A stretch of 50,132 nucleotides of DNA from Minisyncoccota bacterium (GTDB lineage Bacteria > Patescibacteriota > Minisyncoccia > Phycocordibacterales > JABAAK01): the NCBI GenBank assembly GCA_958295675.1, contig OY282360.1, positions 1-50,132 of the forward strand. Direction: 5' to 3'. Shown one piece after another: positions 3,314 through 35,837 of the stretch; position 1 is the first letter of the stretch, and each line of letters begins with the position of its first letter. The notes under the pieces are model-generated. The model saw only the letters and a program-made list of their open reading frames with translations. It was not told the origin of the DNA and did no database searches. The position numbers and the translations under genes are program-made.

Positions 3314-3317
3314 ATTG

Positions 3318-5254: not shown

Positions 5255-5258
5255 TTAC

Positions 5259-7019: not shown

Positions 7020-7117
7020 TAGGGTTTCAAGATTTGTTAGAAAAATAAATAAAAGGGTCAGACATCAGACAAAAGGGGAAAGTGGGATCCACCTTTCTAT
7101 AAAGAACAATAAACCCT

Positions 7118-7690: not shown

Positions 7691-8378
7691 GCGATCAGTG
7701 TACCGCACAATGATAGATATATTGAAAACCAAAAATTGGAAAAATGAGAGTGAAAATTTTTTTCTCACTAAATTAAATTTTGAAAATGAAAAAGAAAATA
7801 ATTGTCCCTGATGATATTGTTGTTGATTTTGATGATAATAGAATAACAAACACCATCTTACTCCTAAAAAACATTAGTAATGATTTTTTGCAAGTGATAT
7901 TTTACTCACTATAATTAACCGAATTAGGGTGGAAAAGATAGGTTTTTTAGGTGTGGATAGATAGGGGTAAGGATATAATGATATAATACAAAGTAGGGTC
8001 GCTTTATATGCTTGATACGAAAAACTTTGGAAGTTCAAAATATACTAGATTCTTTATTCTTTTACGACCCAACAATGAGAAAAATTGATTTTGATTAAAT
8101 TAAGGAGAGCATTAAGGAAAAAGGCAAGAATCTTGGATTTAATTTTTTTAAGATGATTTTTTACTCACTATAATTAACCGAGTTAAGAAAATTAAATATA
8201 ATAGCTGTCAATTATATGGCTAATAGGATTAGAATGACAAAAAATATAAGGGATTTCTAATAAAATCTTTAATGATTGATGTGGATAGGTATGGGTAGAT
8301 AACACTAAATCTTAGATTTGATAAAATCTTGTCTTGATAATTTTTTAAAGATTAACAACTTAAAAACAGAAATATAAC

Positions 8379-11300: not shown

Positions 11301-11690
11301 GCCGTCATCGGACAGATGAGGCCGTTCAGAAACAAGTCAGGCGAAAAGATGTACTTCATCAGTTTGGAGGATGACACAAACGAAAAAATAGAGGCGGTCT
11401 GTTTCCCGGATGTGGCGAATGACGAAAAGGTGGAGCCGCTGCTCGCGCCCAACCGACCGGTGAAAGTGCGCGGCGGCACCACAATGCGCAATGAGCAGAT
11501 GACCATACGAATCGACAGCATTGAGATGCCCGCACCGGCACCGGCGGCACCGTCAGGAGGGGATAAAGAGAATGTCCTTCAGCGTCAGCCCGTCACGGAC
11601 AACACCGCCCCCGAAAACGATAAGAAGGATGAGCAGTATGCCGGCAAAGAGCAGCGCACCGGCATGCGGATCACGGAATACATCTCTTAA
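8379..11690 (+). CDS. dnaE: DNA polymerase III alpha subunit
   Basis: 1103 aa. PHP domain (NVHSHYSLL), GSAAGS, RFLNPFRPSPPDVDLD, FDILGL, YRPGPM, and an OB-fold region near the C-terminus. The last ~55 aa are low-complexity and overlap a convergent ORF. Confidence 0.95.
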   Translation: MKFGYLNVHSHYSLLRGIAKVPKILEKAKEMGCDTVALTDTHNMYGAVEFYKKAKDMDMRPILGVTLFVRETESPQFHPIVLLAENKKGYHNILMLITMAHFAEGNTPFLTYEQIAKYKDGIIALLPALYNPVQQALAQDNIDGAKKYLKNYTSIFTNNNVFLGISPQNPTPKDGTHIKPATEAMVNLAKENGVGVIPLPLVYLLNEDDTEGREVLLRIQSTQLSPQEDGVFEDPLLLPQRKDIEEWVQTICPESLETLDTIIKRCDWELELGTWVFPTPPVPEGADRVALLREYIDNGYEQRGLQKTEETEERIETELRTIVGRGYTDYFLSVIDLIRYMHKNGILTTTRGSAAGSMVSYLAGITNVNPIEYQLPFERFLNPFRPSPPDVDLDIADNRRNEVIDYITERFGKEKVAQIGTLGTMMARAAVRDTARALGYSYMNGDRIARLIPMGVQGSPMYIDKAMDEVSELKELYESDETARHIITVAKKIEGNARHISVHAAGVVISPTTIVEYTPLEQDPKGITNRPVTQYNMHAVEDAGMLKFDILGLTNLAILAGAVALVKKDRGEDIDVEKIPMDDPKTFTMISRGYTTGVFQLGGDGMTAVLKKMKPTTIHDIAAIVALYRPGPMRNIDEYIERKQGRKPATYLHPDMEKYLKNSYGVLVYQDDLLYTAIEIAGYNWKEVDVFRKAVGKKIPELMAQQEKIFKERVRERTKMPNIKVDKLWNLFDPFKGYGFNKAHAMSYAKVAYQTAYMKAHFPAQYMTAHLNAVAGETENVSDIIYESKRIGLKVLPPGLNESEDLFTTEKNENRHEDIRIGLATIKQVGHAAAEAIMKERKNGGPYASLEDFFMRIAPHKVINRRNAEALIKVGVFDAFKKRNVLLGNIELLLHCVKDAHTNIDQCALFDAAPTVSLNLKPATEQVHKIQELYWEKELLGVYVSGHPLHSFIREGLRISDIKRKEKNSKVLTTAVIGQMRPFRNKSGEKMYFISLEDDTNEKIEAVCFPDVANDEKVEPLLAPNRPVKVRGGTTMRNEQMTIRIDSIEMPAPAPAAPSGGDKENVLQRQPVTDNTAPENDKKDEQYAGKEQRTGMRITEYIS

Positions 11691-11786
11691 CTGCTGCAAC
11701 CCACCCTTAAATCCGCCGTTCAGAAAAAGAAAAAAGATAACAACGACAATAATGACAAAAAATAGGAGCCAACCTTGGTAAGTCAT
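11553..11786 (-). CDS. Possible small two-TM membrane protein at the end of the ABC exporter operon
   Basis: ORF 11553..11810, with the internal ATG at 11786 (MTYQGWLLFFVIIVVVIFFLFL...GALLFAGILLILLIVFGGG). It has two clear hydrophobic helices, but it overlaps the dnaE 3' tail by ~138 nt on the opposite strand, so only one of the two readings may be real there. Confidence 0.3.
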   Translation of the reverse strand: MTYQGWLLFFVIIVVVIFFLFLNGGFKGGLQQLRDVFRDPHAGALLFAGILLILLIVFGGGVVRDGLTLKDILFIPS

Positions 11787-11806
11787 ACAACGCACAGTAT
11801 ACCGTA

Positions 11807-12520
11807 TCACCGCGCATGTTGTTTTGATCGTTTCGGCCGACCGTCCTTCTCTATTACCCCGTCCTTCAGAACAATCAAACGGGATGCTTCCTCCGCGTAC
11901 TCCAATTCATGCGTCACCATAACGATGGTCTGTCCCGCGCGGTGCAGTTCATGAAAGATGTCTATCACCTGCCGGGACCGATCGCCGTCAAGATTGGCGG
12001 TCGGCTCATCGGCAAAAAGAACCGACGGCTGATGCACAATAGCGCGGGCAATGGAGACACGCTGGCTCTCGCCACCTGAAAGCTGACTCGGCGTGTGGTT
12101 TATGCGATCCGCCATACCGAAGCGGGAGAGTGCCTTAACCGCCTGTTTTTTAGCACTCTGAAGCGGTGTGCCGCGCATCAGCACAGGCAGCGCGACATTC
12201 TCCCACGCGCGCATCTCCGGCAGCAGCGCGTAATCCTGAAACACAAAACCGAAAGTTTCCAGGCGATAGGATGTTTTCTGACGCATGGACATGGAAGCGG
12301 CATCCGTGTCGCCGACGAATACAGTGCCGGCAGTCGGGACATCCAACAGACCGATTTGATACACCAAGGTGCTCTTCCCCGCCCCGGACGCGCCGGTAAT
12401 AGCGACAAACTCGCCCTCAGAGACGGTCATATCAATACCCTTGAGTACCGCGGTCACCTGCGCGCCGTCCTGAAATGATTTCTGTAATTGTTTTGCCTGT
12501 AATACTTGCATATACCTCAT
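11807..12520 (-). CDS. ABC transporter ATP-binding protein (MacB/LolD/FtsE-like)
   Basis: Walker A GASGAGKST, ABC signature LSGGESQR, Walker B LFADEPT and an H-loop VTHE. Confidence 0.9.
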   Translation of the reverse strand: MRYMQVLQAKQLQKSFQDGAQVTAVLKGIDMTVSEGEFVAITGASGAGKSTLVYQIGLLDVPTAGTVFVGDTDAASMSMRQKTSYRLETFGFVFQDYALLPEMRAWENVALPVLMRGTPLQSAKKQAVKALSRFGMADRINHTPSQLSGGESQRVSIARAIVHQPSVLFADEPTANLDGDRSRQVIDIFHELHRAGQTIVMVTHELEYAEEASRLIVLKDGVIEKDGRPKRSKQHAR

Positions 12521-12522
12521 TA

Positions 12523-13860
12523 TTATCGCCCGCGTACGGAATCAATTGCCGGTCGCCGAATGATGCGGTGAGCAGGTATGAGCCCTGCGATAGCGGTCGC
12601 GAACAGCAGAAGGGCGACATACAGCGTGGTACGCGGCGTGGTCACATATAGCACGCCGTCACTGAACGGAAACGGTATCGGATTCGCGGCGAAAAACGGC
12701 ACGAGCAGCAGGTACAGAACGGCAAGCCCGAGAGAGACACCGAGAAAGGCGAAAAACAATGCGTACAGTACATACGAAATGCGGATTGCAGTCGGTGTAA
12801 TCCCTATCGCTTTCAGAATGCCTATAAACTTCTGCCGAGAAACGGCGGTCACAAAAATAATTATAAAAATAGTGATGGATGAAACCGCCAGACCGATGGA
12901 GCCGACGACCATGCCGAGCATTCTGAACACGGTCCGTACATCATCCAGAAATGATCCTATCGCTTCATCAACCGTCTCTATAGTGGCATACATCCCGAAA
13001 CCGTCCCGAAGCAATCGTTCTTTCACCACAACAGCATCCTGCGAATCAAACAGCCGCACGGCAATGCCGGAGACATCGTTCGCGGGATTCGAGACATGGC
13101 CGCGCGCCTCATCAATGTGCATCATAATATTGAGATCCAGCTCACCCGCCTTGGTGCGGTACACCCCCCGCACCCGGTACTTCTGCAGCACACCGCCGGG
13201 GTTCGCGCGCCGCACCTGCACCGATCCCGGCTGCTCAGCATCACTGCCGCCGACGGATAAAAAGTCACCGCTCTTGGTATCGCCGAGCCGGATATAGACA
13301 AAGTCCCCGGGATACACACCGGAGAGTACGCCCGCGCCGAACGGCGAGTAACGCTCAAGCAGCGCGCTGCCGATAAGCACATCGCGCCGGCTGCCGTTCG
13401 CGCTGAAATACTCACCCTCAAGCAGATGATCCTGCAGATTGGTTGTCATTGATTCAGATGCCGGATCAACGCCGAGCACGGTTGTCCTGACACTCTGCCG
13501 TTTCTCATTCGCGTTTATAACATTAAAAATCTCACTCTCGGTAATCACCTCTGCGCTGACACCGAGACGGGGCGACATTGATTCAACCCGAGGGTCCGAA
13601 CGCAAAACCGGCAGAATATGCTGTGTCCGATTCACGAATGTTTCCCCCTCTTTCGGCGAAACATACACATCACCGATAGCGCGCTCGCGCAAACCGTCAA
13701 AAGAACCGACCACAATACCCTCAAGAATACCGCCGATAACGGTGAGGTTCAGGAAAGTGAGCAGCATCACAAAAGTAATCAGCACTGTTGTCCATGGATT
13801 CGCCCCGCGGACATACCGCGCGGTAAGAAAGAATCCGACTGCGATATCACTTTTCTTCAT
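12523..13860 (-). CDS. ABC transporter permease, FtsX/MacB family
   Basis: ORF 12523..13887. I chose the ATG at 13860 (MKKSDIAV...), which overlaps the upstream stop. Layout is an N-terminal TM, a large extracytoplasmic domain, then a C-terminal three-TM FtsX-like block (ILKAIGITPTAI...). Confidence 0.85.
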   Translation of the reverse strand: MKKSDIAVGFFLTARYVRGANPWTTVLITFVMLLTFLNLTVIGGILEGIVVGSFDGLRERAIGDVYVSPKEGETFVNRTQHILPVLRSDPRVESMSPRLGVSAEVITESEIFNVINANEKRQSVRTTVLGVDPASESMTTNLQDHLLEGEYFSANGSRRDVLIGSALLERYSPFGAGVLSGVYPGDFVYIRLGDTKSGDFLSVGGSDAEQPGSVQVRRANPGGVLQKYRVRGVYRTKAGELDLNIMMHIDEARGHVSNPANDVSGIAVRLFDSQDAVVVKERLLRDGFGMYATIETVDEAIGSFLDDVRTVFRMLGMVVGSIGLAVSSITIFIIIFVTAVSRQKFIGILKAIGITPTAIRISYVLYALFFAFLGVSLGLAVLYLLLVPFFAANPIPFPFSDGVLYVTTPRTTLYVALLLFATAIAGLIPAHRIIRRPAIDSVRGR

Positions 13861-15400
13861 GAAGGTCGTCCTTAAGAATGACGACATCGTCCGTGGTCAA
13901 CTCGCCCGTCACCACCACAGCGCCATCCTCAAGATGCGCGCCGACGCTCACCGGCACAGTCATCCTGTCCCCGCCGCGCTCTACAATCACATACTCTTCG
14001 GAATCGCGCTTCATCACCGCGCTTCGCGGCACAGCGAACACAGCAACCGCGACACCGACCGGAATACGCACATTAACCGTCATCCCGGAACGAAGAGTAA
14101 CATCAGAATCCTCCACATCAAACACGACCGTATACACGGGCACATCATTAATCCGCTTTTCTGTCGCGTCAACGGTGCGCACCCGCACAGCAATCCGCTC
14201 ACCGGTCGCTTCAACAACCGCCCGCATACTCTGATCCGGGCTGATGTTCTGTATCTCCACTTCCGTCACATTCACAGAAAGGTCGTAACCGTCCTGCGAA
14301 ACAAACCGAACCGCTTCCGTTCCCGGCTGCACAAATTCTCCGACACGCACAAAGACCTCGCCGATGATACCGGAAAACGGTGCCCGCACCTGCGTCTTCG
14401 CCAATTGCAGTTCAAGCCGGTTCAGTCGTTCCTGTTCGGCATCCACCTGCGCTTTCTGCGCGAGCCGATCCGCTTCCGTGCTGCCGGCAAGGGATTCATC
14501 CGACTGAGCGAGCGTGAGGTTATATTTCGCCCGAGCGACCGCCATCTCATTCAAATGCTTCGTAACGGACACCGTCGCATCAAGCAGCACACTGCGCATT
14601 TTCGCCAACAGCAGCACGGTATTCTGATTCTGCTCCTGGAATGAACGAATCGGCAGCAGAAAATCATAGGTTTCAACGATGCCGTCGTACAGCACCCGCA
14701 AATCTTTGGAGAACTGCCGCAAAATCACCGCGACCTGCTGATAGTTTGTCGTATCAATATTTGACCATGCGCGCCAACGGTTAAAGATGTCCTCCGCACC
14801 CTTCCGCACCCTGTTTATCCGCTGCTTCGTCAGGACGGATACATCTCCGACGAACAACGGATCATCCAATGTGCCGCCGAAAAAGGAGTCCAGTTCGGTA
14901 TGCACCATATTCTCAATTTTCACAGCAGTCTGCTGTGCGGTAACAAGCGCGAGACGCACCTCGTTCTCTAAAATTTGTTCGGAAACATCAGCATTTGCCT
15001 GCACACGAACCCGCTCGTTCTGCTCCGGTCCCTCAACAAAACTGTTCAAACGAACCTTTTCCCGCTCAAGCTGCGACTGCTGCGCGTCCGCTTCCGCTCG
15101 GAGCGTCGCTGCATCAAGCGTGGCGATAACAGACCCGGCGGCAACAGTATCACCCGCCTCATAGTGCACCTGCCGCACCGCACCGCCCTCTTCAAACGCC
15201 AAAGTCACATCATTCCGCGCCTCAATAGTGCCGGTCGCCACAGCGAAATCCTGATGCTGAGTAAGAACAACCTGCGCTCGATTTTTACCGTTAGATTCTG
15301 CCATATCGTACAATAGATTACTAAGAAAAGTATACACCAAAAAAGCGACCCCGAGCACGGCGATAACGAACAAAAAATACTTGAATGAAAAAATTTTCAT
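13847..15400 (-). CDS. HlyD/MacA-family periplasmic adaptor (membrane fusion protein) with a long coiled-coil
   Basis: N-terminal TM anchor, a lipoyl-like segment (GTIEARNDVTLAFEEGGAVRQVHYEAGDTVAAGSVIATLD), a long helical hairpin, and a second half-lipoyl (VRAPFSGIIGEVFVRVGEFV). It is the first gene of a three-gene exporter operon. Confidence 0.8.
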   Translation of the reverse strand: MKIFSFKYFLFVIAVLGVAFLVYTFLSNLLYDMAESNGKNRAQVVLTQHQDFAVATGTIEARNDVTLAFEEGGAVRQVHYEAGDTVAAGSVIATLDAATLRAEADAQQSQLEREKVRLNSFVEGPEQNERVRVQANADVSEQILENEVRLALVTAQQTAVKIENMVHTELDSFFGGTLDDPLFVGDVSVLTKQRINRVRKGAEDIFNRWRAWSNIDTTNYQQVAVILRQFSKDLRVLYDGIVETYDFLLPIRSFQEQNQNTVLLLAKMRSVLLDATVSVTKHLNEMAVARAKYNLTLAQSDESLAGSTEADRLAQKAQVDAEQERLNRLELQLAKTQVRAPFSGIIGEVFVRVGEFVQPGTEAVRFVSQDGYDLSVNVTEVEIQNISPDQSMRAVVEATGERIAVRVRTVDATEKRINDVPVYTVVFDVEDSDVTLRSGMTVNVRIPVGVAVAVFAVPRSAVMKRDSEEYVIVERGGDRMTVPVSVGAHLEDGAVVVTGELTTDDVVILKDDLHEEK

Positions 15401-15472
15401 GAATTACACCCAGTGTATCACACACGAAGTAGTAAATAGCGAAAAAGAAAGAAAGTGATATAATCAAACTAT

Positions 15473-15545
15473 GGTGCCTATGGTGTAATGGTTAGCACTC
15501 AGGTTTGTGGAACCTGCAGAAAGGGTTCGAATCCCTTTAGGCACC
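15473..15545 (+). tRNA. tRNA-His (anticodon GTG) with encoded G-1
   Basis: Hand fold: G-1 plus acceptor GTGCCTA/TAGGCAC, anticodon stem CAGGT/ACCTG, loop TTGTGGA, T-arm AAGGG-TTCGAAT-CCCTT, discriminator C. Confidence 0.85.
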
Positions 15546-15693
15546 CAATAAAGTTTTCATGGATGGATTTCCTACATATTTGCTACAGTAACTTAGGTTT
15601 CTCTGGCGGTCCTGTCATATGTGAATATAAAGAGATAACAGATCTCTACGACCAACTTCCGCTTACCTACCTTGCAAAACCGGCGCACCCTCT

Positions 15694-16932
15694 TTACTGC
15701 CGCCACTCAAATCGCTCTCGTAAAATATCCTTGTTATGGCTTACCATAATGGAAGATAAATCCTCATTATACATTACCGAAAGATTATTAGTTGCTTCAA
15801 TTGGATTTGAATTTGAGTATATATCCTCAAATTTTACAATCCCGCTATCAACATGCAACACGATGTGGTAATCTTTAATATTTTTGTGTACACTCCGCTC
15901 CATGTATATTAAATTTTTGTAATTGTCTATCAGGATAAATTCCTCTTTGTTCCTCACAAATTTTATAGGAACCACATGATGCAAATCAAAACCATCGCGC
16001 TTGATTACTTTATGATTGGAAAAGTACTCCTGTTTAACACTGAGTCTTCGTTGTTGTCTTGATATTTCAGGAAAGATGCCAAACTTACCTCTGTTTAGCG
16101 CAAAGTTTTTCTCACGAACATCAAAATAAATTGTATTCTTCAATAACTGCATTATCTGTTGAGTTTCATTTCTCCAGTTATGAAAATCTCTCTTTACTGT
16201 TTTACTGCCGTCAAAATTGTCTGGATTGCAATAGTCTTTTAGCATTCTATGAACATTTTTCTTCTGGAGTTCATTGAGATCCCGATACGAACTAAGTAAA
16301 TATATTTTTTCTTCGGCAGTCTTCCGCGTATCGGACAAGATATATTGAAACTCTGTGTACGATATTGAGTCATTACTATACGTACTATGATATATCATCT
16401 CTGCAAGATCAGAAATTGCATCACCAAACAATGTATCTATCTTTCTTGAAAATATATAATATTGACCAACGATTGTTTCTTCTTGTATTAATGCAATCGC
16501 ATCTTCAGTTAATTTTACAAAGTGAACATGAGAACGATTATTTGGATCCAACATTTTTTTATCCTTACCAAACCGGTCTATGAAACCCGCTCGACTGAAG
16601 TCAACAAAGAAATTTTTCTTAAGAGAATTCTCTGTAGTCCTTCCAATTTCACTATTGATTTTCTCAACAACAACAGCAAATTCTGGATGCGTGCCCTCCG
16701 CGCTTTCTCTGATTACATCAGTTGATATATCGCCCAACGGAACAGGTAAAAAATCATCCTGAACAACATCGTACACATTCTTCAAAATCGCTATAACAAT
16801 ATCCATATCATATCTGTTGTGTTGAGAGATTTGTATACCCCGATAATCATCCCGCTGAACCCTTTCAACAATGTATTGCAAGAACTCATTACAGGGTTCT
16901 ATATTCAAAATTTTTTCCAACATCTCTTCCAT
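15694..16932 (-). CDS. Putative restriction endonuclease with a C-terminal HNH-type motif
   Basis: 412 aa, last gene of a three-gene co-oriented cluster with two methyltransferases. The C-terminal region DLHHVVPIKFVRNKEEFILIDNYKNLIYMERSVHKNI fits an H-N-(N)-H nuclease pattern. The segment is AT-rich. Confidence 0.6.
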   Translation of the reverse strand: MEEMLEKILNIEPCNEFLQYIVERVQRDDYRGIQISQHNRYDMDIVIAILKNVYDVVQDDFLPVPLGDISTDVIRESAEGTHPEFAVVVEKINSEIGRTTENSLKKNFFVDFSRAGFIDRFGKDKKMLDPNNRSHVHFVKLTEDAIALIQEETIVGQYYIFSRKIDTLFGDAISDLAEMIYHSTYSNDSISYTEFQYILSDTRKTAEEKIYLLSSYRDLNELQKKNVHRMLKDYCNPDNFDGSKTVKRDFHNWRNETQQIMQLLKNTIYFDVREKNFALNRGKFGIFPEISRQQRRLSVKQEYFSNHKVIKRDGFDLHHVVPIKFVRNKEEFILIDNYKNLIYMERSVHKNIKDYHIVLHVDSGIVKFEDIYSNSNPIEATNNLSVMYNEDLSSIMVSHNKDILRERFEWRQ

Positions 16933-16938
16933 ACATCT

Positions 16939-17784
16939 TTACCCCCTCTTTTTATCAGCAATAAAAAGTGCTTTCTGCATGCTTGGTGATTTAACAACCA
17001 TTTTCCTATTTATACCATGCAAACTATCATTTGCCAAACTAACAAATTCTTCACTACTATCAGCACACAAAAAATTCCTACCTAACACTTTAGAAACCAG
17101 TGCCGTTGTGCCGCTACCAACAAAACAATCGAATACAACATCCCCTTCGTTGCTGCTTGCTCTGATTATCCTCTCCAGCATCTCGGTTGGTTTCGGTGTT
17201 GCATGACTCATTTTCTGAACTTTACCATTTACCTTATTCTTATGCCGTTCACTCGTAATATGCCACACATCCCCACACAACTTGCCGTTCGGATTCGGAA
17301 ACCACCGCTTACCGTTCTTCACAATACCTTTTTTCGCCGCATGCGCAATTCTATCCTTTGATTCATATGCGACACGCACATCGTCAGCATTAAAAACATT
17401 TGGAGACCCTTTTGAAAAAAACAACACTGTCTCCTGATTCGGAATAAATCTGTTTTTCGTATGTGAAAAACCATCTCGCTTATCCCAAGTAATCCAATTC
17501 TGAAACAGCAAATATTCTTTTTGAATCAAGAAATTGAAAATCTTAGCGCAATTATACGGCGTGTTGAAAATATACAAACTGCTACCTCTTTTTAATTTCG
17601 GTAACAGTGCATCTATCCACAAAAAGGTAAATTCAAAAAATGCTTGTTCGCTTGAAAAAGTATCCCAATCGCCTTTATTCAAGAAATATGGAGGATCCAA
17701 AACAGCCAAATCAACACATTCATCCTCAGTTGCTTTCATGAAATCAAAGCAATCAGACACGATAATTTTATTTAAATTTCTCAT
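16939..17784 (-). CDS. DNA methyltransferase, N6A/N4C beta-class (DPPY)
   Basis: Catalytic VLDPPYF near the N-terminus and an AdoMet motif FDCFVGSGTT near the C-terminus, the order of the N6_N4 MTase family. Confidence 0.85.
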   Translation of the reverse strand: MRNLNKIIVSDCFDFMKATEDECVDLAVLDPPYFLNKGDWDTFSSEQAFFEFTFLWIDALLPKLKRGSSLYIFNTPYNCAKIFNFLIQKEYLLFQNWITWDKRDGFSHTKNRFIPNQETVLFFSKGSPNVFNADDVRVAYESKDRIAHAAKKGIVKNGKRWFPNPNGKLCGDVWHITSERHKNKVNGKVQKMSHATPKPTEMLERIIRASSNEGDVVFDCFVGSGTTALVSKVLGRNFLCADSSEEFVSLANDSLHGINRKMVVKSPSMQKALFIADKKRG

Positions 17785-18637
17785 GTTTCCTTGCCTCTTC
17801 TAATTTTTTATTTATAATTTTCGCATAACTTTTCACAACTTCATATCCGATATAGTTTCTACCCCACTCCTTCGCAACCTTAAGCGTGGTGCCAGAGCCG
17901 GCAAACGGATCCAAAACCGTTTCGCCAACAAAGGTAAATAATCGCACGCACCGCTCCACTATTTCCTCAGGCATGAGGGCACAATGGCTTCCGAATGCCA
18001 AATCCTTTTTGTTTGGTACTGGTATATCCCACACTTGTTTTGTGAAGCGCACCCAATCTTTCTGAGTTAACTTACTTTTCTTTTTTATTTCTTCCGGCAA
18101 ATCATTGACGGGTTTACCATCCTTCACAAAAACACTGACAAATTCGGTAGTGTTTTGCGCGTAGAAATTCCTCGGATATGGATAACTGCCGAACATTAAA
18201 CTCTTCCTCGGATTTGTCCTATTCCAAATATACAGGTCATACAAATGCATGTGGCGGATTTTTTTCACTATTGAATTTTCAATGTCGGAAGAGATATTAA
18301 AAATATGCCGGGTATAGTGCTCGCTGTAGTCCTTTTTCGGAACCGGCATTAGTGGTGTATTAATGACAAGTTTTCCATTCGGAGTAAGTACCCGATAACA
18401 TTCTCTCCACACTGACAACACCTCCTTGATGTATGCATCATAACTTTTAATATCACCAATCTGTGCTTTCGCTTTGGTGTGTACCTGTTTTTTTTGGTGT
18501 CCGTCTAAAGCGTAGTTTTTCACATTATAGTACGGTGGACTGGTGACAATGAGGTGCACACTATTGGACGGTACCTCCGCCATACTCTTCGCATCTTTAT
18601 AAAAAACGGTATTGAGAAAATCTATTTTTTTGCGCAT
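17768..18637 (-). CDS. DNA methyltransferase, N4C/N6A beta-class (SPPY)
   Basis: Catalytic TSPPYYN and C-terminal LDPFAGSGTT. It overlaps the next methyltransferase by 17 nt. Confidence 0.85.
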   Translation of the reverse strand: MRKKIDFLNTVFYKDAKSMAEVPSNSVHLIVTSPPYYNVKNYALDGHQKKQVHTKAKAQIGDIKSYDAYIKEVLSVWRECYRVLTPNGKLVINTPLMPVPKKDYSEHYTRHIFNISSDIENSIVKKIRHMHLYDLYIWNRTNPRKSLMFGSYPYPRNFYAQNTTEFVSVFVKDGKPVNDLPEEIKKKSKLTQKDWVRFTKQVWDIPVPNKKDLAFGSHCALMPEEIVERCVRLFTFVGETVLDPFAGSGTTLKVAKEWGRNYIGYEVVKSYAKIINKKLEEARKHEKFK

Positions 18638-23285: not shown

Positions 23286-23458
23286 GATGCTTTATGAGAA
23301 GTAAAGACAAACAAAGATAGTATACCTGACAAACAAAAATTAAATCGGAAATGGGAAGAAAAACCCTGTGAAAATTGTGGAAACTTTACAGAACACCATA
23401 TAGTTATATAATCAAAATCTGTTGCGAAAGCGTATGAAGTGCGATACCATACTGTGCA

Positions 23459-24085
23459 ATGCTGACTGACACACAAATAACGCCGATACACGCGAAAAAT
23501 CGCCGGGATATACAAATCACCCCAGGCGACACCATTCGTGTGCACCAAAAGATAGTGGAGGGTGAGAAAACCCGTACACAGGTGTTTGAGGGTATTGTCA
23601 TTGCCTGCAAACACGGATCGGAAGCGGGGTCCACATTCACCGTCAGGAGGGTGGGATCGGACGGCATCGCGGTTGAGAAGATATTCCCTCTGTACTCTCC
23701 GATGATTGATAAGATAGAAGTGACCAAACGCACAAAGACGAGACGAGCAAAACTCTATTTCCTCAGAGATAAGACACCGAAACAAATCAGAGAAAAACTC
23801 CGAAGAACAAAAATAGTGTCTGAAGAGATGACCAATGAACCGAACGATGCAGATTCTTCGGAGCCGACAGAAGTGACACAGGAAGAAACAGCGGCGGAAC
23901 AGCCGGAACAGAAACCGGCGACAGACACAGAAAACCAAAACACAGAGGCAGAGGAACAAAAAACTGAAGAGGAGGAGCAGGTGCCGGAAATAAAAGAAGA
24001 ATCAGCGGCGGAAATAAAACAGGAAGACAAGGAATCGGCACAAAAAGAAACACCGACGGAACCAGAAGCGAAAAAAGATGCATAG
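23459..24085 (+). CDS. rplS: Ribosomal protein L19 with a ~90-aa acidic/lysine-rich C-terminal extension
   Basis: The first ~115 aa match L19 ([27 protein letters not shown]..., RRAKLYFLR). The remainder is an E/K/T/Q-rich low-complexity tail. Confidence 0.9.
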
Positions 24086-24106
24086 CCGAGGTATACTGTT
24101 CAATAT

Positions 24107-24190
24107 GCCCAGGTGGCGAAATTGGTAGACGCGTACGCTTCAGGAGCGTATGGGAGCAATCCTGTGGAGGTTCAAGTCCTCTCCTGGGCA
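24107..24190 (+). tRNA. tRNA-Leu (anticodon CAG), long variable arm
   Basis: Hand fold: acceptor GCCCAGG/CCTGGGC, anticodon stem TACGC/GCGTA with loop TTCAGGA, a long variable arm, and T-loop TTCAAGT. Confidence 0.85.
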
Positions 24191-24193
24191 CCC

Positions 24194-24656
24194 GAGAGCA
24201 CAAAATACCAGTGCCGAAGAAAGAATCCGTGGTACAATAAAAAATACCCGTTACAATCCACATGATGTCTGTACATTAACAGCACATCTTGTGTCCCGCG
24301 ATTAGTGGGAATGCGCCCGCAAGGGTGGTAATACCACGGTTTCCCTGTTCCTCAAAAAATAGGGACACGAAAGTATTACAATAAATTGTTTGTTTCTGAA
24401 TGCATTAATACTGTGTATTAATACATTCACAAGAACAGACTTTTTCTTTGCAAGCCATTGCTTGATATAGAAGTAAATTTGTAATCAGTAACGGGCAGAG
24501 CTGAACGAGGACGGGCTTTTGCCCTCCGAGATATAACTCGGGATTATGAATTTACTTATATTGTTATGGAAAAAATAAAAAACTTACTATTCCTATTAAG
24601 AGTAGTAAGAATTATTATTGAAATGATAGCGATGTGCTTGTATAAGAAGTTTAAGT
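24194..24656 (+). ncRNA. Candidate structured leader/ncRNA of the reverse transcriptase (possible msr-msd-like template RNA)
   Basis: ~460 nt with no credible ORF directly upstream of the RT on the same strand. It contains several hairpins: GTGTCCC 24291-24297 pairing with GGGACAC 24362-24368; a 14-bp AT-rich hairpin at 24398-24428; and a 10-bp hairpin at 24583-24609. Boundaries and strand are unverified. Confidence 0.3.
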
Positions 24657-25565
24657 ATGATGCATCAAACTGAACAAGAACACTTTGACTTCTTATACAA
24701 GCACACCAGCAGAGACAAGATATTGGATCCGCAGGTACAGTACATCGTTTCACACATTGACAGTCACTACCGTGAAGAGAAAAGATTAAAAGCAAGTGGA
24801 GGTTTTAGAGTTCTGCATAAACCCTCCGAGCAACTGAAACAGATTCAAATAAAGATACTGGAAGAAATCAAAAAAATTAATGCGGAAAAGTGCACTATAT
24901 CGCCGAGAGTGTTCGGTCTAGGTGAAAGTAACATGAAAGAAAATGTGCTTCCACACGCAAAAAACAGACATATATTCAAGATTGACATAAAGGATTTTTT
25001 TGACAGTGTAAATTATGAAAAAGTAAAGACAGGTTTCAAGGCACTCGGCTGCAACGATGAAAAAGCGGAAATACTGACGCGGTTGTGTACCTACAAATAC
25101 TGCATACCGCAAGGAGTGCCGACGAGCTCAATGCTCGCGTCAATCTGTCTGAAAAACTGCGATAGACGCATTGAAAACCTGTGCGAGGAATTGGGTATGG
25201 TATACACCAGATATGCTGATGACATTACGATATCCTGTAAAAATAAAATAACGGATGAAACGCAGAGAAATATCAAAAAAATTATCACGCAAGAGGGTCT
25301 CACAACAAACGAAAAAACAAAGGTGGTTGATACACGAAGCGAACCATGTGAGATTACCGGCGTTATACTACAAAACGGTAAAATGATGACAAAATATCAC
25401 CCTGATCAGGAAAAACACGACTTCATCAAGAAAAGAATACCTATCAAACAGAGTGAGATAGATCCACAACTCTGTGGAGTATTGGAATGGATCAGAAATA
25501 TAGACCCTGAGTACTATCATACACTGACCAACAACCAAAGAACAGCAAAAATGCAATCAGAGTAA
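24657..25565 (+). CDS. Retron-type reverse transcriptase
   Basis: 302 aa. The RT motifs appear in order: NVLPHAKNRHIFKIDIKDFFDSV (NAxxH-like region plus motif 1/2), IPQGVPTSSMLASI (motif 4), YTRYADDITIS (YADD catalytic motif), TTNEKTKV, then EITGVIL (a VTG-like motif characteristic of retron RTs). The size is typical of retron RTs. Confidence 0.85.
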   Translation: MMHQTEQEHFDFLYKHTSRDKILDPQVQYIVSHIDSHYREEKRLKASGGFRVLHKPSEQLKQIQIKILEEIKKINAEKCTISPRVFGLGESNMKENVLPHAKNRHIFKIDIKDFFDSVNYEKVKTGFKALGCNDEKAEILTRLCTYKYCIPQGVPTSSMLASICLKNCDRRIENLCEELGMVYTRYADDITISCKNKITDETQRNIKKIITQEGLTTNEKTKVVDTRSEPCEITGVILQNGKMMTKYHPDQEKHDFIKKRIPIKQSEIDPQLCGVLEWIRNIDPEYYHTLTNNQRTAKMQSE

Positions 25566-25728
25566 GCAACAACAGACGACTTTGCAAGGTATAGGAGGAC
25601 ATGATGGTGAACGGAACAAATCAGCACAGCATTTTTGGTCTCGGATTTTTGTGAAGTGGAGTAGAGTAAAAAGACGAGATGAGAGAAATAGAGCGGCTGT
25701 ATACACCACCGAACATATCTTGCACCTT

Positions 25729-26451
25729 TTACACCCTCTCACACAACGCTTTGGCAGCGGCAAAATCTTTTGGATACTCCGCGACTATATCAACTCTTTC
25801 ACTCTGGTAGTGTAATTGCAGTGACAGCCGGCGCGCATGCAGAGCGAGACGGGTGAAACCGAGTAATGGAGAGTGTTTCGGCGCATACCGAGCATCACAC
25901 ACAATGGGTGTTCCTAATGACTGCGCATGTACGCGGATTTGGTGTGTGCGACCGGTCTGAGGATAAAACGATATGAGTGAGGTGTTCTCTTTGCACGCGG
26001 CAATGACCGCATACTCGGTACACGCATCCCGGCTCATACCGCGAATGTTACGTGTTGTTTGCTTCCGAAAATCTGATCGGCTCTTCCCTATAGGCAAGCG
26101 CACGGTGCCGCGTGTGTTTTTTGGCTTGCCGTATACAAACGCATGGTATTCTTTTTCAATCTTTCCTTTCTGAAAATGTTTTTTTATCTCAGCGAAGGTC
26201 TCCTGATCTTTCGCAATGAGCATGGCTCCGGATGTCTCCCTGTCTAAACGGTGCACAATGCCGGGTCTGTGGATTGTATTCCCCTGCTGATCGGTGTAGG
26301 TCTCGCCAACCTCTTGCAGTGCCGGATACTGCTCGCACAGCCAATCCGACAGGGTGCGGTCAGTATTGACACCGGCGTGCACCACCAAGCCGGACGGCTT
26401 ATCAATCGCTAAAAGGTGTTCGTCCTCGTAAATGACGGTTGGTTCCTGCAT
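25729..26451 (-). CDS. RluA-family pseudouridine synthase
   Basis: VIYEDEHLLAIDKPSGLVVH and the catalytic HRLDRETSGAMLIAK motif. There is no N-terminal S4 domain. Confidence 0.9.
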   Translation of the reverse strand: MQEPTVIYEDEHLLAIDKPSGLVVHAGVNTDRTLSDWLCEQYPALQEVGETYTDQQGNTIHRPGIVHRLDRETSGAMLIAKDQETFAEIKKHFQKGKIEKEYHAFVYGKPKNTRGTVRLPIGKSRSDFRKQTTRNIRGMSRDACTEYAVIAACKENTSLISFYPQTGRTHQIRVHAQSLGTPIVCDARYAPKHSPLLGFTRLALHARRLSLQLHYQSERVDIVAEYPKDFAAAKALCERV

Positions 26452-26528
26452 TGGTGGGCGATGCAGGGCTCGAACCTGCGGCCTTCTGGGTGTAAACCAG
26501 ACGCTCTAGCCAACTGAGCTAATCGCCC
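26452..26528 (-). tRNA. tRNA-Val (anticodon TAC), CCA encoded
   Basis: The reverse complement folds as GGGCGAT-TA-GCTC..GAGC-G-TCTGG-TTTACAC-CCAGA-AGGCC-GCAGG-TTCGAGC-CCTGC-ATCGCCC-A-CCA. Confidence 0.9.
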
Positions 26529-26562
26529 TACCGCCTAATATACCACACGCCTATTTGTCCTG

Positions 26563-27609
26563 TTAAGAGCCGGTGCCGCGCGAAACCGCTGTTTTAACCG
26601 GGTAGCCGAGATCTATTTTCTCATCGTGCAGCTTTTCTAAAATACCCAAATGAACGGTGTGTCTGGTGTCAACAAACTCATCAAAAGTTGCGCCCTCTAT
26701 TTTATACACCGCCTCAAACATAACGGCATGCTCGCCGAATTCAAGGATTTTCGCATAACCGAACAATACTTTATTATGTGAAGAAACAACATCTTCAATC
26801 AGTTTCGGGATGCTCTGAAGTTTTTCCGGGGTGGTTTTATATGCAACAGGAATGGTGTGAACCACCTTTCTTTGGGTGCGGTCGGTAATATTGCGAAGCT
26901 CGGTGCCGACCAATTGCTCATTCGGAACGACAATCTTTTCACCGGAGAAGGCGCGAACATGAGTCGTTTTAATGCCGACGCGCTCAACTGTTCCGCTGAT
27001 AGATCCTATCTCAATACTGTCTCCCTCCGAAAACGGCTTATCGAAAAAAATCACAAAGGAACTGAAAAGATCCGCGAGTATTTTCTGAAACGCGAACGCG
27101 ATGGCGATACCACCGATACCGAGACCCGCAACAAGCGCCGTTATATTAACGCCGAGGTTTGACAGTACGAATGTGAACACAAAAAGCGCGGAAACAATTT
27201 TCAAAAGCATGCTGATTGCCGGCAGCGCGGTTGTGAATGCTCTGCGTGTGCCTCCGACACTCTCTACATACTCTTTACCGAAAAAATCAATGAGGCGGAA
27301 CAGGATGATAACCACCGCAACACCAAGAAAGATAACCAATACATGGCCGAGTGCATTTTCAACAACGGACGGAGTAGTGATGAAGAAGCGAAAAGCTATG
27401 AGAAAGGCGAGGATTGCGTAGAACTTTGAGCCGAATGAACGGATAACCACAACAAGCGTATCATCAATTTTTGTGTCCGTCTTTCTTGACCTTCTGACAA
27501 CATGACGCACAAGCAGTGTGCGGATAATAATACCGAGACCGATAACAGCGAGAAATGCGACGATGGCGATAGCGATATCTGGAGCGGTATTATTGTAGAT
27601 TTCAAACAT
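26563..27609 (-). CDS. Mechanosensitive ion channel, MscS family
   Basis: N-terminal TM helices followed by the MscS beta-domain signature (FFDKPFSEGDSIEIGSISGTVERVGIKTTHVRAFSGEKIVVPN). Confidence 0.9.
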   Translation of the reverse strand: MFEIYNNTAPDIAIAIVAFLAVIGLGIIIRTLLVRHVVRRSRKTDTKIDDTLVVVIRSFGSKFYAILAFLIAFRFFITTPSVVENALGHVLVIFLGVAVVIILFRLIDFFGKEYVESVGGTRRAFTTALPAISMLLKIVSALFVFTFVLSNLGVNITALVAGLGIGGIAIAFAFQKILADLFSSFVIFFDKPFSEGDSIEIGSISGTVERVGIKTTHVRAFSGEKIVVPNEQLVGTELRNITDRTQRKVVHTIPVAYKTTPEKLQSIPKLIEDVVSSHNKVLFGYAKILEFGEHAVMFEAVYKIEGATFDEFVDTRHTVHLGILEKLHDEKIDLGYPVKTAVSRGTGS

Positions 27610-27981: not shown

Positions 27982-28503
27982 ATGAAAACCGAAAAAGACA
28001 GCGTACAGGAAGAAAAAAATGAGCGGCGGTATTTACCGGACGATGTTAAACCATTGGTCTCTTGGCAGCTGGAAGAAGAAAAGAAGGCATATTCAAAAGA
28101 CAAAGAATTGTTGGTCATCCTTGTCGGTGCGGGTGCTGTAATACTCGCAATCCTTGTTGAAACTTACATATTTGCCGTGCTGCTCGCGGTGGCTACATGT
28201 CTATTCACATACATCGGACGGCAGAAACCGAAAAAGATGACATTCAGTATCACAGACATCGGTCTGTTCCTTGACGACGACTTCCTGCAATTAGAAGAAG
28301 TACACAATTTTAATATTATTGACGATCCTGGTGAGCGGGCGCGTTTGCTGCTTGGGGTACAGAAGATGGTTCATGTAAATGAGATTGTGCCAATATATGA
28401 TACTGACATAGAGCAGATAAAAACAACTTTGAAAGATTTAGGTATAAAAGAAGACGAAACACTTGAGCCGTCTATACTGGACCATCTTGTTAAATTTATA
28501 TAA
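27982..28503 (+). CDS. Hypothetical membrane protein (two TM helices)
   Basis: 173-aa ORF with a charged N-terminus, the hydrophobic hairpin LLVILVGAGAVILAILVETYIFAVLLAVATCLF, and a soluble C-terminal domain. No family recognised. Confidence 0.6.
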   Translation: MKTEKDSVQEEKNERRYLPDDVKPLVSWQLEEEKKAYSKDKELLVILVGAGAVILAILVETYIFAVLLAVATCLFTYIGRQKPKKMTFSITDIGLFLDDDFLQLEEVHNFNIIDDPGERARLLLGVQKMVHVNEIVPIYDTDIEQIKTTLKDLGIKEDETLEPSILDHLVKFI

Positions 28504-29004: not shown

Positions 29005-31584
29005 CTAACTGCACGGCGACAGAGTTACACTATCTTTCTGTGAACTGATGGATTTTGTTGTTATTCCTGTGTTTTGTTGTATTGATACCGGTATACACCC
29101 GCCCAGCTTATTGTTTTGAAGTTTTAGTGTTAATAATGACGGCAACCTACCTAATGATGCCGGAATCTCACCGGTCAGCGTGTTGCCACTCAAGTCTATT
29201 TCTGTAAGTGTTTTCAGACGACCAAGCGATTCTGGAATCTGACCCTTAAGTCCTCCGTTTTTTCGAATCCATACAAGAGATCCCGAACGGACATTCACAC
29301 CGTTCCAGGAAGCAATTGATTCGGTGCGGCTCCAACTATTTAACGCCGTCCTTCCCGTTCCAACAAGAGTATCTTTCGCGGCAAGCAATGTTTCACAATC
29401 ATGATACAATTGTGTTCTGAGTGTTTCTCCCCCACATCCACCAAACGGCGCATTCGGATTAGGGTCAAAGATAACCTTCTGACTCCGCACACCATCGTCA
29501 GTACGCATCTGCACTATAAGCACCTTGTTCTGGAAAGAGGTTCTTAGAATCTCCGTCTTCAAATTATCAAGAATGATATGACTGTCTTTGTTATTAATTT
29601 TCTCTGCAGCAGCAGCACAGGTAGTACCGCCTCCGGCACATGTAATATCATTTCTCTTCAAGAAGGTGTCTGTGTCCATAAAGTGAAAAAAGCGATTAGG
29701 ACTGCTGAGAGTAATAAATTTATTATTATTACTACTGTCCACCGCATAAATATTCACCTCAAAATAGTACGGAGCGTTGGTGCCCGATTTTGCATGGCTG
29801 GGTACTGCCACCACAATCTTATCCTTAGTCGGATCCCGTGACGTACTCATATCAAGTTTCAAACTTACGTCCGGCACAGGGATGGTCTTCGCGACATTCC
29901 TATCAACCGCCCGTTCCGGCAACACCCGTACCGCAGCACTGATAGGGCCGACCTCGTTCCATGAACTTGTATCCACTGCACCATTACACAAATCGGCTTC
30001 AGTTCTGTTCGTGTTTGTTGGATTCGGATCTGTTGCGGTCGGCCTTGGTGGCGATTGATACCAACAGCGCAACTCATACTCTGTGTCACGGACAACAGCA
30101 TCATTATGAGTGGTGGACCCTACCGTACTCGTTGTCAAAAAGTTTGTTTTAAAACACGATGCGACACGATTAGTGAGTCGCTCGGCAATTTTACAAAAAG
30201 CGTTATTTGAATCGGGGCTGGTGAAATTGTCAATGCTTACCTCAAAATCAACCAAACCTCCTTCAGTAAGAACAGCAGGAGATATTCTGAACAATCGTAG
30301 AACAAGAGATTTGACCGAAATACCTCTACTATCCTCTGCATTGATATCTCCAAAAATCTTATGAACATGTCTGTCGGTACATCTAAGACGAAATTGGGAT
30401 ATTGGAGAAAATAATGTTTCAAAATAACTGTACCCAACAGTATTACTACCTCCCGACCCAGGCGACAACTTGTTAGCACTCACTGTTCTTGGTGGAGGAG
30501 AACCAAGAGAAACCCACTGCGCCTTACTTCGTCCCAAAGGACAAAAAATATTAAGTATGATTCTTTGCCCGATGCGGGCGGTACGGGATGATGGTGCTAT
30601 TGCCGCTTGTGGGGCTACATTGCTCTTGAAACCGAGTGACGGGATGTCTACTGCATTTGAAAAACCGGTGTTGTGTCCGGAAGGCAGACAGTTATTCACA
30701 TCAGTCGTGCTCCCGAAATTAGGACCGAATGACCAATCACCACTCTTTTGCGACCACCCGCAACCGAACAATTGCATGTATGGGAATGTAATACCGGCAC
30801 AATACTGATTTGTACAACCAGTACCCGGAGTAGGGTTATTGACATCGGTCGGGATTTCTCGAACAAACGGACGCACACCTTTCCAACCGGACGGAACTGA
30901 CGATGATGTCACCGTCCTGCCGTCACCTCCCACAATGAAAGGACTCGCGGGACCGAGAAGGATAAAATCGCGTAAAAGCGGAGCATACGCACAACCGACA
31001 ACGGTAACAGTTGTGCCGGCGGTTGTTCCCCCATCTGGAACATTTGGAATAATATGATCGTCTTTGTCAACACCATTACTACCAGCATTGACACGAACAA
31101 TCCGTGCCTGCCTGTTAGCACCGGTAAGCCCATAACAACTTCCCTCATCAATTCCTGTTGTTGTGGAATCGTCAGCGGGAAACTTATCAAGGTCAAAATA
31201 AATCGCCCCATAGACCGGCGACCATGCATGTCCTCGTATCTCTCCTGTCTTTATGTCTGAAGAGTCATCAAAATCTCCGTCAGCATTAGCATCGTATCCA
31301 TCATGGTAGTACTTAACAGCATTTTTCCAAACCACTGAATCGTCACATACACCAATATTACAGGTGGTGGCTGGTAGAGTGGCAGTGTTACTACAGCCCT
31401 GTATTGGAGTACTGGAAGAACTGACATTACTAATGGGCATATCACAGGTTGTACGCGCCCACACATCTAGTCGTTCATTCCAAATATAACTATGCAGGTT
31501 CCATGGCGTGCTTTGTGCGGCTGCGGAGTGCGGCACAGCAATAAAAAATACCGCACAAAGCACGCACAACAGATACAGAACCAT
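29005..31584 (-). CDS. Large secreted/surface protein with C-terminal leucine-rich repeats
   Basis: ORF 29005..31650. I chose the ATG at 31584, which gives a signal-peptide-like start (MVLYLLCVLCAVFFIAVPHSAAAQ). The C-terminus carries plant-type LRR units (GQIPESLGRLKTLTEIDLSGNTLTGEIPASLGRLPSLLTLKLQNNKLGG). Confidence 0.75.
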   Translation of the reverse strand: MVLYLLCVLCAVFFIAVPHSAAAQSTPWNLHSYIWNERLDVWARTTCDMPISNVSSSSTPIQGCSNTATLPATTCNIGVCDDSVVWKNAVKYYHDGYDANADGDFDDSSDIKTGEIRGHAWSPVYGAIYFDLDKFPADDSTTTGIDEGSCYGLTGANRQARIVRVNAGSNGVDKDDHIIPNVPDGGTTAGTTVTVVGCAYAPLLRDFILLGPASPFIVGGDGRTVTSSSVPSGWKGVRPFVREIPTDVNNPTPGTGCTNQYCAGITFPYMQLFGCGWSQKSGDWSFGPNFGSTTDVNNCLPSGHNTGFSNAVDIPSLGFKSNVAPQAAIAPSSRTARIGQRIILNIFCPLGRSKAQWVSLGSPPPRTVSANKLSPGSGGSNTVGYSYFETLFSPISQFRLRCTDRHVHKIFGDINAEDSRGISVKSLVLRLFRISPAVLTEGGLVDFEVSIDNFTSPDSNNAFCKIAERLTNRVASCFKTNFLTTSTVGSTTHNDAVVRDTEYELRCWYQSPPRPTATDPNPTNTNRTEADLCNGAVDTSSWNEVGPISAAVRVLPERAVDRNVAKTIPVPDVSLKLDMSTSRDPTKDKIVVAVPSHAKSGTNAPYYFEVNIYAVDSSNNNKFITLSSPNRFFHFMDTDTFLKRNDITCAGGGTTCAAAAEKINNKDSHIILDNLKTEILRTSFQNKVLIVQMRTDDGVRSQKVIFDPNPNAPFGGCGGETLRTQLYHDCETLLAAKDTLVGTGRTALNSWSRTESIASWNGVNVRSGSLVWIRKNGGLKGQIPESLGRLKTLTEIDLSGNTLTGEIPASLGRLPSLLTLKLQNNKLGGCIPVSIQQNTGITTKSISSQKDSVTLSPCS

Positions 31585-31754
31585 GGTGGAAATTAATACG
31601 GAGTGATGTAATGAAATGCTCAAGAACTGCATACAAAATGGAACATGCAAAAAGTATACTTGTATGGTACTACAAAATAGTTAGGTCAATTAATATACTA
31701 TGGAAAACAATCTGTATCAAGAAAATAGTTTGTACTGTATACTGAAAAGCATCG

Positions 31755-35805: not shown

Positions 35806-35837
35806 ACAACTACAGTGTACCGCAAAAGAGAATGCGG

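Follow-up and report, generated by a model that had tools for sequence, protein, structure and literature searches.

A reverse transcriptase gene and a small open reading frame in its structured RNA leader form a candidate minimal retron-like module in a Minisyncoccota genome

The stretch of DNA analysed here (the window) comprised 50,132 nucleotides (nt) of contig OY282360.1 from a Minisyncoccota bacterium (GenBank assembly GCA_958295675.1, positions 1 to 50,132, forward strand). A reverse transcriptase (RT) gene with a long leader is found at 24194-25565, and a preliminary description based on the sequence had presented it as a retron-type RT lacking an effector gene. The present analysis showed that the leader contains a conserved small open reading frame (ORF), here called small protein (SP), and 24230-25565 is judged, with somewhat better than even confidence, to be a self-contained 1.35-kb minimal two-gene retron-like defence module expressed as one transcript. 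Confidence in the architecture is high, while confidence in the toxin and defence functions is moderate. The genes and segments at the locus are as follows.

23459-24085, gene for ribosomal protein L19, upstream neighbour of the module
24106-24193, tRNA-Leu(cag), directly 5' of the leader
24194-24656, leader, 463 nt between tRNA-Leu and the RT ORF
24566-24673, plus strand, SP, 35 amino acids (aa), MEKIKNLLFLLRVVRIIIEMIAMCLYKKFKYDASN, with its stop codon 17 nt inside the RT ORF; candidate effector or toxin
24657-25565, plus strand, RT ORF, 302 aa, with an alternative start ATG at 24660
25729-26451, minus strand, PseudoU_synth_2 (RluA-type) gene, convergent with the RT gene and separated from the RT stop by a gap of 163 nt

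The RT ORF was found as first described, after tRNA-Leu and ahead of the convergent rluA gene. It matched Pfam RVT_1 at 84.8 bits and carries the motifs YADD and EITGV. Its retron-type character, also proposed in the preliminary description, was borne out by PADLOC, NCBIfam and PDB profile searches. With PADLOC, the window RT scored 199 bits on RT_II-A (PDLC02941), 180 bits on RT_VI and 180 bits on RT_III-A, and every strong match was a retron RT. The best NCBIfam model was retron_St85_RT with 190.5 bits, below its cutoff of 235. A PDB search with a profile of the RT clade placed the Ec86 RT first (1.7e-40) with a full-length match over profile positions 18-292, followed by Kva2, Ec67, Ec78 and Ec83. 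Retron RTs are defined by the motifs N-A-x-x-H and V-T-G together with YxDD, and the alignment of the nine clade members keeps N[VA]xxH, YxDD and ITG[VI]. Judged by its motifs and profile matches, the window RT is of the retron type.

The nine clade members reached 165-201 bits on their best PADLOC model, while genuine II-A and III-A representatives reached 270-374 and 284-446 bits on their own models. RT_VI gave 157-183 bits and ranked second or third behind RT_II-A, never first, and RT_III-A gave 160-180 bits. Because the clade scored 165-201 bits against 270-446 for genuine members, the RT was placed in none of the defined retron subtypes, and on these profile scores it would belong to an unclassified lineage. 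The nearest relatives outside the clade in a word-indexed search were type III-A RTs with 34-36% identity. When 1.84 billion cluster representatives were scanned exhaustively with HMMER, only 20 proteins had E ≤ 1e-30, and identity fell from 42-70% in a small family to 37% or less beyond it.

A different origin was also considered for the RT, namely a group II intron fragment or a diversity-generating retroelement (DGR) with the leader unrelated to it. DGRs have been reported to make up ~80% of the RTs in genomes of the candidate phyla radiation (CPR) (PMC8632793), which would favour such an origin in a CPR-like host. However, the group II maturase model TIGR04416 gave 56.5 bits against a cutoff of 300, no long direct repeat resembling a template repeat/variable repeat (TR/VR) pair and no Avd or target gene was present, and Rfam found no intron; the retron motifs and the full-length Ec86 match also speak against it. 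This identity was rejected based on the maturase score, the lack of a TR/VR repeat and the Rfam result, and is considered hardly credible.

A total of nine independent loci were compared: the window and L006, L001, L002, L004, L008, L096, L177 and L179, with RT identities to the window of 40-70% across the set. The initial related-locus search with the RT gave one distant locus and the additional loci came solely from protein look-ups. An exact degenerate DNA pattern for the stem around the RT start (Y...X2, listed below) gave 0 matches in metagenome, genome and viral contig collections. Neighbourhoods differed in all nine loci and no flanking gene was common to them. The neighbours in various loci included restriction-modification (R-M) methylases, HNH, AAA_15, SocA/Panacea, SMC, CBASS-like and housekeeping genes; the several loci surrounded by R-M, HNH, AAA_15, SocA/Panacea, SMC or CBASS genes appear compatible with defence islands. 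Approximately 450 nt upstream of the RT was conserved among the loci, and no conservation was found 3' of the RT stop across them. As the leader is conserved, the flanks are unshared and nothing is kept past the RT stop, the unit of inheritance runs from the promoter to the RT stop. Retrons are characterised by a cognate effector protein or domain encoded alongside the RT. No large effector was adjacent to the RT or common to the homologous loci, in agreement with the preliminary description, and SP was the sole gene shared with the RT.

Two further arrangements were observed among the related loci. Contig L177 (1-3579) carries two inverted SP-RT modules, one with a full-length RT and one with an RT of 261 aa, which converge on a DUF2726 gene; this is either a true inverted duplication or an assembly artefact, and L178 has a single copy. 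L012 (3528-10041) and L013 show a type III-A retron, made up of PRTase-CE, a protein of ~110 aa and the RT, with a second and distinct RVT_1 gene (337 aa) and an HNH protein of 503 aa behind it; the arrangement resembles a tandem of two RT systems.

An ATG-initiated ORF of 31-45 codons was present at the position of SP in 9/9 loci. The SP frame was free of stop codons in all nine, compared to 2-7 stops in each of the other two sense frames, and the length differences among loci stay in frame. Comparison of the codon positions showed that the third differs most (0.50 vs 0.37 and 0.32). The end of SP overlaps the RT start by 14-35 nt in eight loci and lies 3 nt short of the RT start in L179. Gene callers had annotated the ORF in L002 and L177. 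The SP peptides are cationic (+3 to +7) and amphipathic (helical hydrophobic moment 0.43-0.57), and each contains an 18-residue stretch that is hydrophobic (Kyte-Doolittle 1.3-2.2). AlphaFold2 (single-sequence model) predicted one helix for the window SP with a predicted local distance difference test score (pLDDT) of 94.6. The SP profile, searched among 5.8 billion proteins, found only its own clade (the L002 gene call), and no PADLOC or Pfam family was matched. In L180, which has a more distant RT (37% identity), a 55-aa ORF is joined to the RT by an ATGA overlap. The missing Shine-Dalgarno (SD) motif before SP is no argument against its translation, because an SD-like motif precedes only 6/43 long ORFs of the window.

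Contrary to the preliminary description, the 463-nt leader is only partly non-coding, as it includes the 35-codon ORF at 24566-24673 that is conserved in the nine loci. Since this ORF lies within the leader, 'no effector gene' is an unsafe description, and the term effector-less was set aside: a conserved small ORF in the leader overlaps the RT start, comparable to the toxin SP of type VI retrons. By comparison with these systems, SP would most likely be the toxic effector of the module.

The leader is a strongly structured RNA. The minimum free energy (MFE) of 24243-24710 was -164.2 kcal/mol compared to -97.0 ± 5.4 in dinucleotide shuffles (z = -12.4), in line with the hairpin-rich leader first noted, while Rfam matched no family in the leader apart from tRNAs and chance miRNA matches. 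The following elements were identified.

24230-24238, plus strand, extended -10-like promoter box TGGTACAAT, conserved in this position across the homologous loci and fitting the GGTAYAMT motif of the genome
24247-24254, plus strand, a1-like 5' arm CCCGTTAC of the terminal long-range helix, pairing with 24488-24495
24259-24379, plus strand, msr-like stem-loops P1 (24259-24293), P2 (24294-24310), P3 (24314-24327, with a GCAA loop of the GNRA type) and P4 (24328-24379)
24383-24445, plus strand, long hairpin P5 (inverted repeat I1), candidate msd (reverse-transcribed) stem-loop
24446-24457, plus strand, X1, between P5 and P6, a short X2 copy with complementarity to the 5' half of Y
24467-24561, plus strand, P6 domain with the stem 24467-24486 / 24542-24561 (inverted repeat I3), enclosing a2 and two small hairpins
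24488-24495, plus strand, a2-like 3' arm GTAACGGG, directly 3' of the P6 5' arm
24583-24609, plus strand, hairpin P7 inside the SP coding sequence (inverted repeat I21), found in the alifold consensus with 2 compensated pairs
24633-24656, plus strand, Y, 5' arm of the RT-start stem, encoding the SP residues CLYKKF and holding the SD-like TAAGAAGT of the RT
24682-24705, plus strand, X2, 3' arm of the RT-start stem, inside RT codons 9-16 (FDFLYKHT)

The transcript start was predicted from the promoter box at ~24244-24247. A sigma-70 scan did not call the promoter because no -35 is present. The a1/a2 helix is 8-10 bp long and joins the first nt after the promoter to a site ~240 nt downstream. Its two positions were complementary with differing sequences in 7-8/9 loci (TCCGTCGC/GCGACGGA, TCTGTCGGAT/ATCCGACAGA, TCATCTCCT/GGGAGATGA, TCTGTCACC/GGTGACAGA and GGTCTCTAC/GTGGAGGCT in other loci), with a Fisher p of 1.9e-8 in a position-anchored run-length test, which was used in place of an uninformative duplex-energy shuffle test. 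The helices P1-P4 recurred in the individual MFE folds of the loci. P2 showed compensatory changes in 4/6 pairs, and for the outer stem of P4 covariation was seen by reading the sequences. When the 5' domain of six loci was aligned with MAFFT and folded with alifold, P2 alone was recovered, because L001 and L004 misalign; P1, P3, P4 and P5 rest on individual folds and sequence reading.

Downstream of these, the P6 3' arm ends 4 nt ahead of the SP start codon, and P6 showed compensatory changes in the alifold consensus and in the pair counts. For P6, P7 and Y/X2 together (six loci), the covariation score was reached in 0/500 controls. The Y/X2 stem (inverted repeat I2, 24 nt, 92% complementary) encloses in its loop the start codon of the RT and the stop codon of SP. 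Over the nine loci it comprised 21 pairs, of which 95.2% were paired, with 10 compensated pairs compared to 4.4 ± 1.4 in shuffles (0/500), and the pairing collapsed when the register was slid. X1:Y complementarity was 9-11 nt in L006, L001, L008 and L096 (Fisher p = 2.8e-7 for the nine loci), and L096 shows covariation between X1 and Y. Conservation and covariation of the leader in homologous loci, on which the preliminary description had made its interpretation depend beforehand, were thus both found.

The MFE fold of L006 has a1/a2 in place of P6, and for this reason the two are probably alternatives or form a pseudoknot. As read from the sequences, the RNA has two sets of competing pairings, a1/a2 against P6 and X1:Y against Y:X2. 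In the window MFE, the 5' end at 24248-24257 (CCGTTACAAT) pairs with 24560-24569 (ATTGTTATGG, spanning the SP start codon) and replaces a1/a2; this pairing was not evident in other loci.

A long hairpin occupies the P5 position in every locus with unrelated sequences, a constant shape with free sequence that is the usual look of an msd stem, and from its position 5' of a2 we infer that P5 is the likely template for reverse transcription. A further option, raised in the preliminary description, is a DRT2/DRT9-type system in which concatemeric or homopolymeric complementary DNA (cDNA) is the effector or encodes one. In its favour, the RT stands alone, has structured RNA upstream and is without a large partner gene. 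However, the NCBIfam scores were far below the cutoffs (Drt2 60.5 bits vs 390, Drt3a 65.9 vs 200, Drt4 14.5 vs 450), the best profile and structure-sequence matches were all retron RTs, and the candidate template hairpin P5 is unconserved in sequence. Stop-free concatemers in 24243-24565 numbered 5778 (max 180 nt) and were no commoner than in shuffles (2283-16989, maxima up to 258 nt). A DRT2/DRT9-type system is therefore regarded as very improbable.

Taken as a two-gene module, the locus would operate as follows. A promoter of the host type would drive a structured RNA of ~420 nt, as part of a single transcript that begins at a1. The 5' part would have the anatomy of a retron non-coding RNA (ncRNA), with the a1/a2 helix, the msr-like P1-P4 and the template P5, and the same transcript would run on into SP and then RT as a 'hybrid RNA'. 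The RT would bind the msr-like part and copy leftward from a2 through the P6 5' arm, X1 and P5. SP would be the toxic output, with the RT, its cDNA or both as the controlling partner. The 21-bp Y/X2 stem would bury the ribosome-binding region of the RT. Since the SP ORF includes Y, and Y in turn the SD-like TAAGAAGT of the RT, ribosomes completing SP should melt Y/X2 and permit RT initiation; RT synthesis would then be coupled to SP synthesis, which would link the toxin to its presumed antidote or controller. After reverse transcription, RNase H may remove the template (P6 5' arm and X1) and free the P6 3' arm beside the SP start, and the removal of X1 would leave Y only X2 as a partner, shifting the balance between SP and RT translation. 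The expected biological role would be phage defence by abortive infection.

A bolder form of this proposal is possible but is advanced tentatively: that an unclassified retron RT lineage of CPR-like small genomes reached or kept the combination of hybrid RNA and small toxic peptide independently of type VI retrons, in its most reduced form, with RNA and not a repressor protein as the switch between armed and firing states. If true, RT translation would be gated by a 21-bp stem that SP ribosomes must open, and reverse transcription would rewire the RNA via three competing pairings (X1/Y/X2 and a1/a2/P6).

Several observations weigh against the two-gene defence module. No placement of the RT in type VI was reached; II-A is the top-ranked PADLOC type, and the closest relatives outside the clade are II-A-like or III-A. 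At 31-45 aa, SP falls short of the known type VI SPs (55-79 aa), and it has detectable homology to nothing. No helix-turn-helix (HTH) gene is shared among the flanks of the nine loci, whereas both type VI systems studied so far use an HTH protein to neutralise or repress. The Y arm codes for the most conserved (invariant) SP residues, CLYKK, and P7 is inside the SP ORF; for these reasons, part of the SP conservation could be a by-product of the RNA. One antisense frame is also stop-free in 5/6 core loci and broken in L008. The SP start codon is unpaired in the window MFE, which makes repression of SP by P6 uncertain. Retrons prime their DNA 2'-5' from a conserved branching G at the end of a1; no such conserved G was found next to a1 here, and the distance to the first G downstream varies among the loci from 1 to 10 nt. 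X1 is degraded in the window, with an X1:Y run of only 5 nt, the window RT is without the C-terminal CPxC motif present in 6/9 clade RTs, and only nine loci are known.

Regarding the antisense frame, the window has an ORF at 24556-24795 (minus strand, 79 aa) that spans the SP region and the RT start. Such an antisense ORF is probably a mirror effect of the sense ORF.

In an alternative reading, SP is a mere leader peptide (an upstream ORF) that opens Y/X2 for RT synthesis, with the output being cDNA or an effector encoded elsewhere, which corresponds to two of the options in the preliminary description. An SP stop at or just past the RT start with Y inside SP is the classic geometry of translational coupling; the conserved SP C-terminus coincides with the Y arm, and the lack of homology to known toxins and of a neutralising HTH would also be expected. 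However, a leader peptide has no need for a conserved length class, a Lys-rich N-terminus and an amphipathic hydrophobic helix across RTs of 40-70% identity, and in the closest functional precedent (type VI) the embedded small proteins are toxins. In addition, no candidate trans effector was common to the loci and no DRT2-like stop-free template was present. The leader peptide is accordingly rated as rather unlikely.

The state of the window copy also raised the option, included in the preliminary description, of a decaying or orphan retron that has lost its effector and is non-functional. Compared to L006 (70% identical), the window RT has a deletion of ~21 nt (25520-25565 region) that removes CPxC and the original stop, so that the ORF reads into the former 3' untranslated region. 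This loss, the degraded X1 and the position of the element at a rearrangement junction in a reduced genome are compatible with decay. On the other side, the RT ORF is unbroken and retains every catalytic motif, the SP frame and all helices are likewise intact, the fold remains far below its shuffles (z = -12.4), and the effector-poor architecture is the norm in all nine loci and not a truncation specific to the window. Because the module is conserved in nine loci, a degenerate orphan was considered improbable, the loss of CPxC in the window copy notwithstanding.

The CPxC region of L006 lies at about 2590-2650. In L008, the RT (3384-3668) is frameshifted near its end and CPYC is found in another frame. 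CPxC might contribute to a metal site together with a YH(H)G motif and a Cys that is conserved ahead of ITG.

The surroundings of the two-gene module supported the preliminary suggestions of a CPR-like host and of an insertion after tRNA-Leu. NrdA was 83% identical to that of a Ca. Paceibacterota metagenome-assembled genome with a chromosome of 641 kb, and the contig that carries the RT measures 724 kb. Beyond the RluA-type gene the window continues with tRNA-Val and an MscS-like gene. The genes mscS, tRNA-Val, rluA, L19 and tRNA-Leu are collinear, with no RT among them, in Paceibacter and Kaiserbacteria relatives (L181-L183, L187, L195 and L199). The mscS, tRNA-Val, rluA block is inverted in the window (23459-27609) relative to these, and the module lies at the inversion junction after tRNA-Leu. 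These relatives were gathered with L19 as the query; an RluA query gave only distant taxa. None of the remaining family members adjoins a tRNA-Leu. A search downstream of the RT for an att-like copy of the tRNA 3' end gave only short chance repeats, and no integrase was found at the module.

The L19 protein has 208 aa, with the Pfam L19 domain covering residues 17-111 only and a C-terminal tail of ~90 residues that is acidic, E/K/T-rich and of low complexity. Two ORFs near the module, one of 875 aa (29005-31632, minus strand) and one of 173 aa (27982-28503, plus strand), were without a Pfam match at 1e-5. An N6_N4 DNA methylase gene is present in the window at 17768-18637 (minus strand). The GGTAYAMT motif was enriched ahead of genes in the window, with 13 matches compared to 4.1 ± 2.0 expected. 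These -10-like boxes lie few nt before many start codons and before tRNA-Leu (24090-24097; on the minus strand 23319-23326, 7697-7704, 46114-46121 and 35814-35821). The genome seems to rely largely on leaderless or very-short-leader mRNAs.

If the two-gene reading is correct, 'effector-less' retron RTs can hide an effector as a tiny ORF within the ncRNA leader. ORFs of this kind escape both gene callers and the programs that look for defence systems (PADLOC, DefenseFinder-type rules), and retron censuses may therefore under-count complete systems. The mechanism of hybrid RNA plus small toxin would then reach beyond type VI and beyond HTH-dependent versions. A system of 1.35 kb would offer a minimal setting for dissecting RNA switching, translational coupling and reverse transcription, and compact RT-ncRNA pairs are of practical interest as retron editing parts. 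The locus also adds a retron-type defence candidate from Patescibacteria, a group in which DGR RTs reportedly dominate. The hybrid-RNA small-toxin design of type VI is known already; new here is an HTH-less form with a shorter SP and an unclassified RT.

Among known systems, type VI retrons are the closest in organisation. In Retron-Vpa2, a hybrid RNA (hyRNA) of ~470 nt holds the msr-msd and a gene for a small toxic protein; the SP ribosome-binding site and start codon are in stem-loops and the 3' end folds back through inverted repeats, multicopy single-stranded DNA (msDNA), as it accumulates, derepresses SP translation, and an HTH protein keeps reverse transcription in check (bioRxiv 10.1101/2025.10.22.683967). 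In Retron-Sen3, SP is made constitutively and neutralised by HTH, the SP gene is bordered by the inverted repeats IR1/IR2, and covariation extends through its coding sequence (bioRxiv 10.64898/2026.04.27.721009). A Cro/C1-type HTH lies upstream of or overlaps the RT in ~78% of type VI members, the SPs of 55-79 aa form the clusters cl2075, cl2760, cl3272, cl3897 and 'Large', and one representative comes from Ca. Levybacteria, a CPR lineage (bioRxiv 10.1101/2025.10.22.683967, 10.64898/2026.04.27.721009).

The present module resembles type VI in having a structured transcript of ~450 nt (presumably a single one) that combines an msr-msd-like ncRNA with a gene for a small helical protein, conserved inverted repeats that link the ncRNA to the surroundings of the small gene, RNA helices that run through the small ORF, and a short RT (about 280-300 aa) downstream. 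Unlike type VI, it is without a Cro/C1 HTH gene and SP abuts or overlaps the RT; as SP ends 1-35 nt around the RT start in the nine loci, there is no room for an HTH gene. The SP of 31-45 aa is also below the type VI range of 55-79 aa and without detectable homology, the distal inverted-repeat arm X2 lies within the RT coding sequence and brackets the RT start, and the RT reaches 157-183 bits on RT_VI without ever ranking it top.

Type II-A retrons (Ec86/Eco1, St85/Sen2) provided the top PADLOC, NCBIfam and solved-structure matches of the RT. The Sen2 locus has the order ncRNA, effector, RT, and the order here is likewise ncRNA, candidate effector SP, RT. Unlike II-A, no ORF for a nucleoside deoxyribosyltransferase-like effector is present, retron_St85_RT gave 190.5 bits against the 235 cutoff, and RT_II-A gave 165-201 bits against 270-374 for genuine representatives. 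The PRTase-associated type III-A supplied the nearest RT relatives by word-indexed search, but the P0007, P0008 and P0009 loci carry PRTase-CE and a 100-126-aa protein upstream of the ncRNA and RT, neither of which is found here, and RT_III-A scored 160-180 bits compared to 284-446 for the P0007, P0008 and P0009 proteins.

The type I toxin-antitoxin peptides Hok, TisB and Fst are cationic, form a hydrophobic or amphipathic single helix of 30-45 aa and are embedded in a conserved switchable mRNA structure. Compared by general description, SP is similar to them in size, helix and embedding in mRNA structure. It differs in that no antisense RNA gene is evident, the partner would be the RT and its RNA/cDNA, and there is no sequence similarity. 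With retrons generally, the locus shares a structured ncRNA that adjoins the RT and is closed by a covarying a1/a2-like helix. Overall, by these comparisons the module looks like a minimal, HTH-less, small-peptide retron-like system, a stripped-down cousin of type VI.

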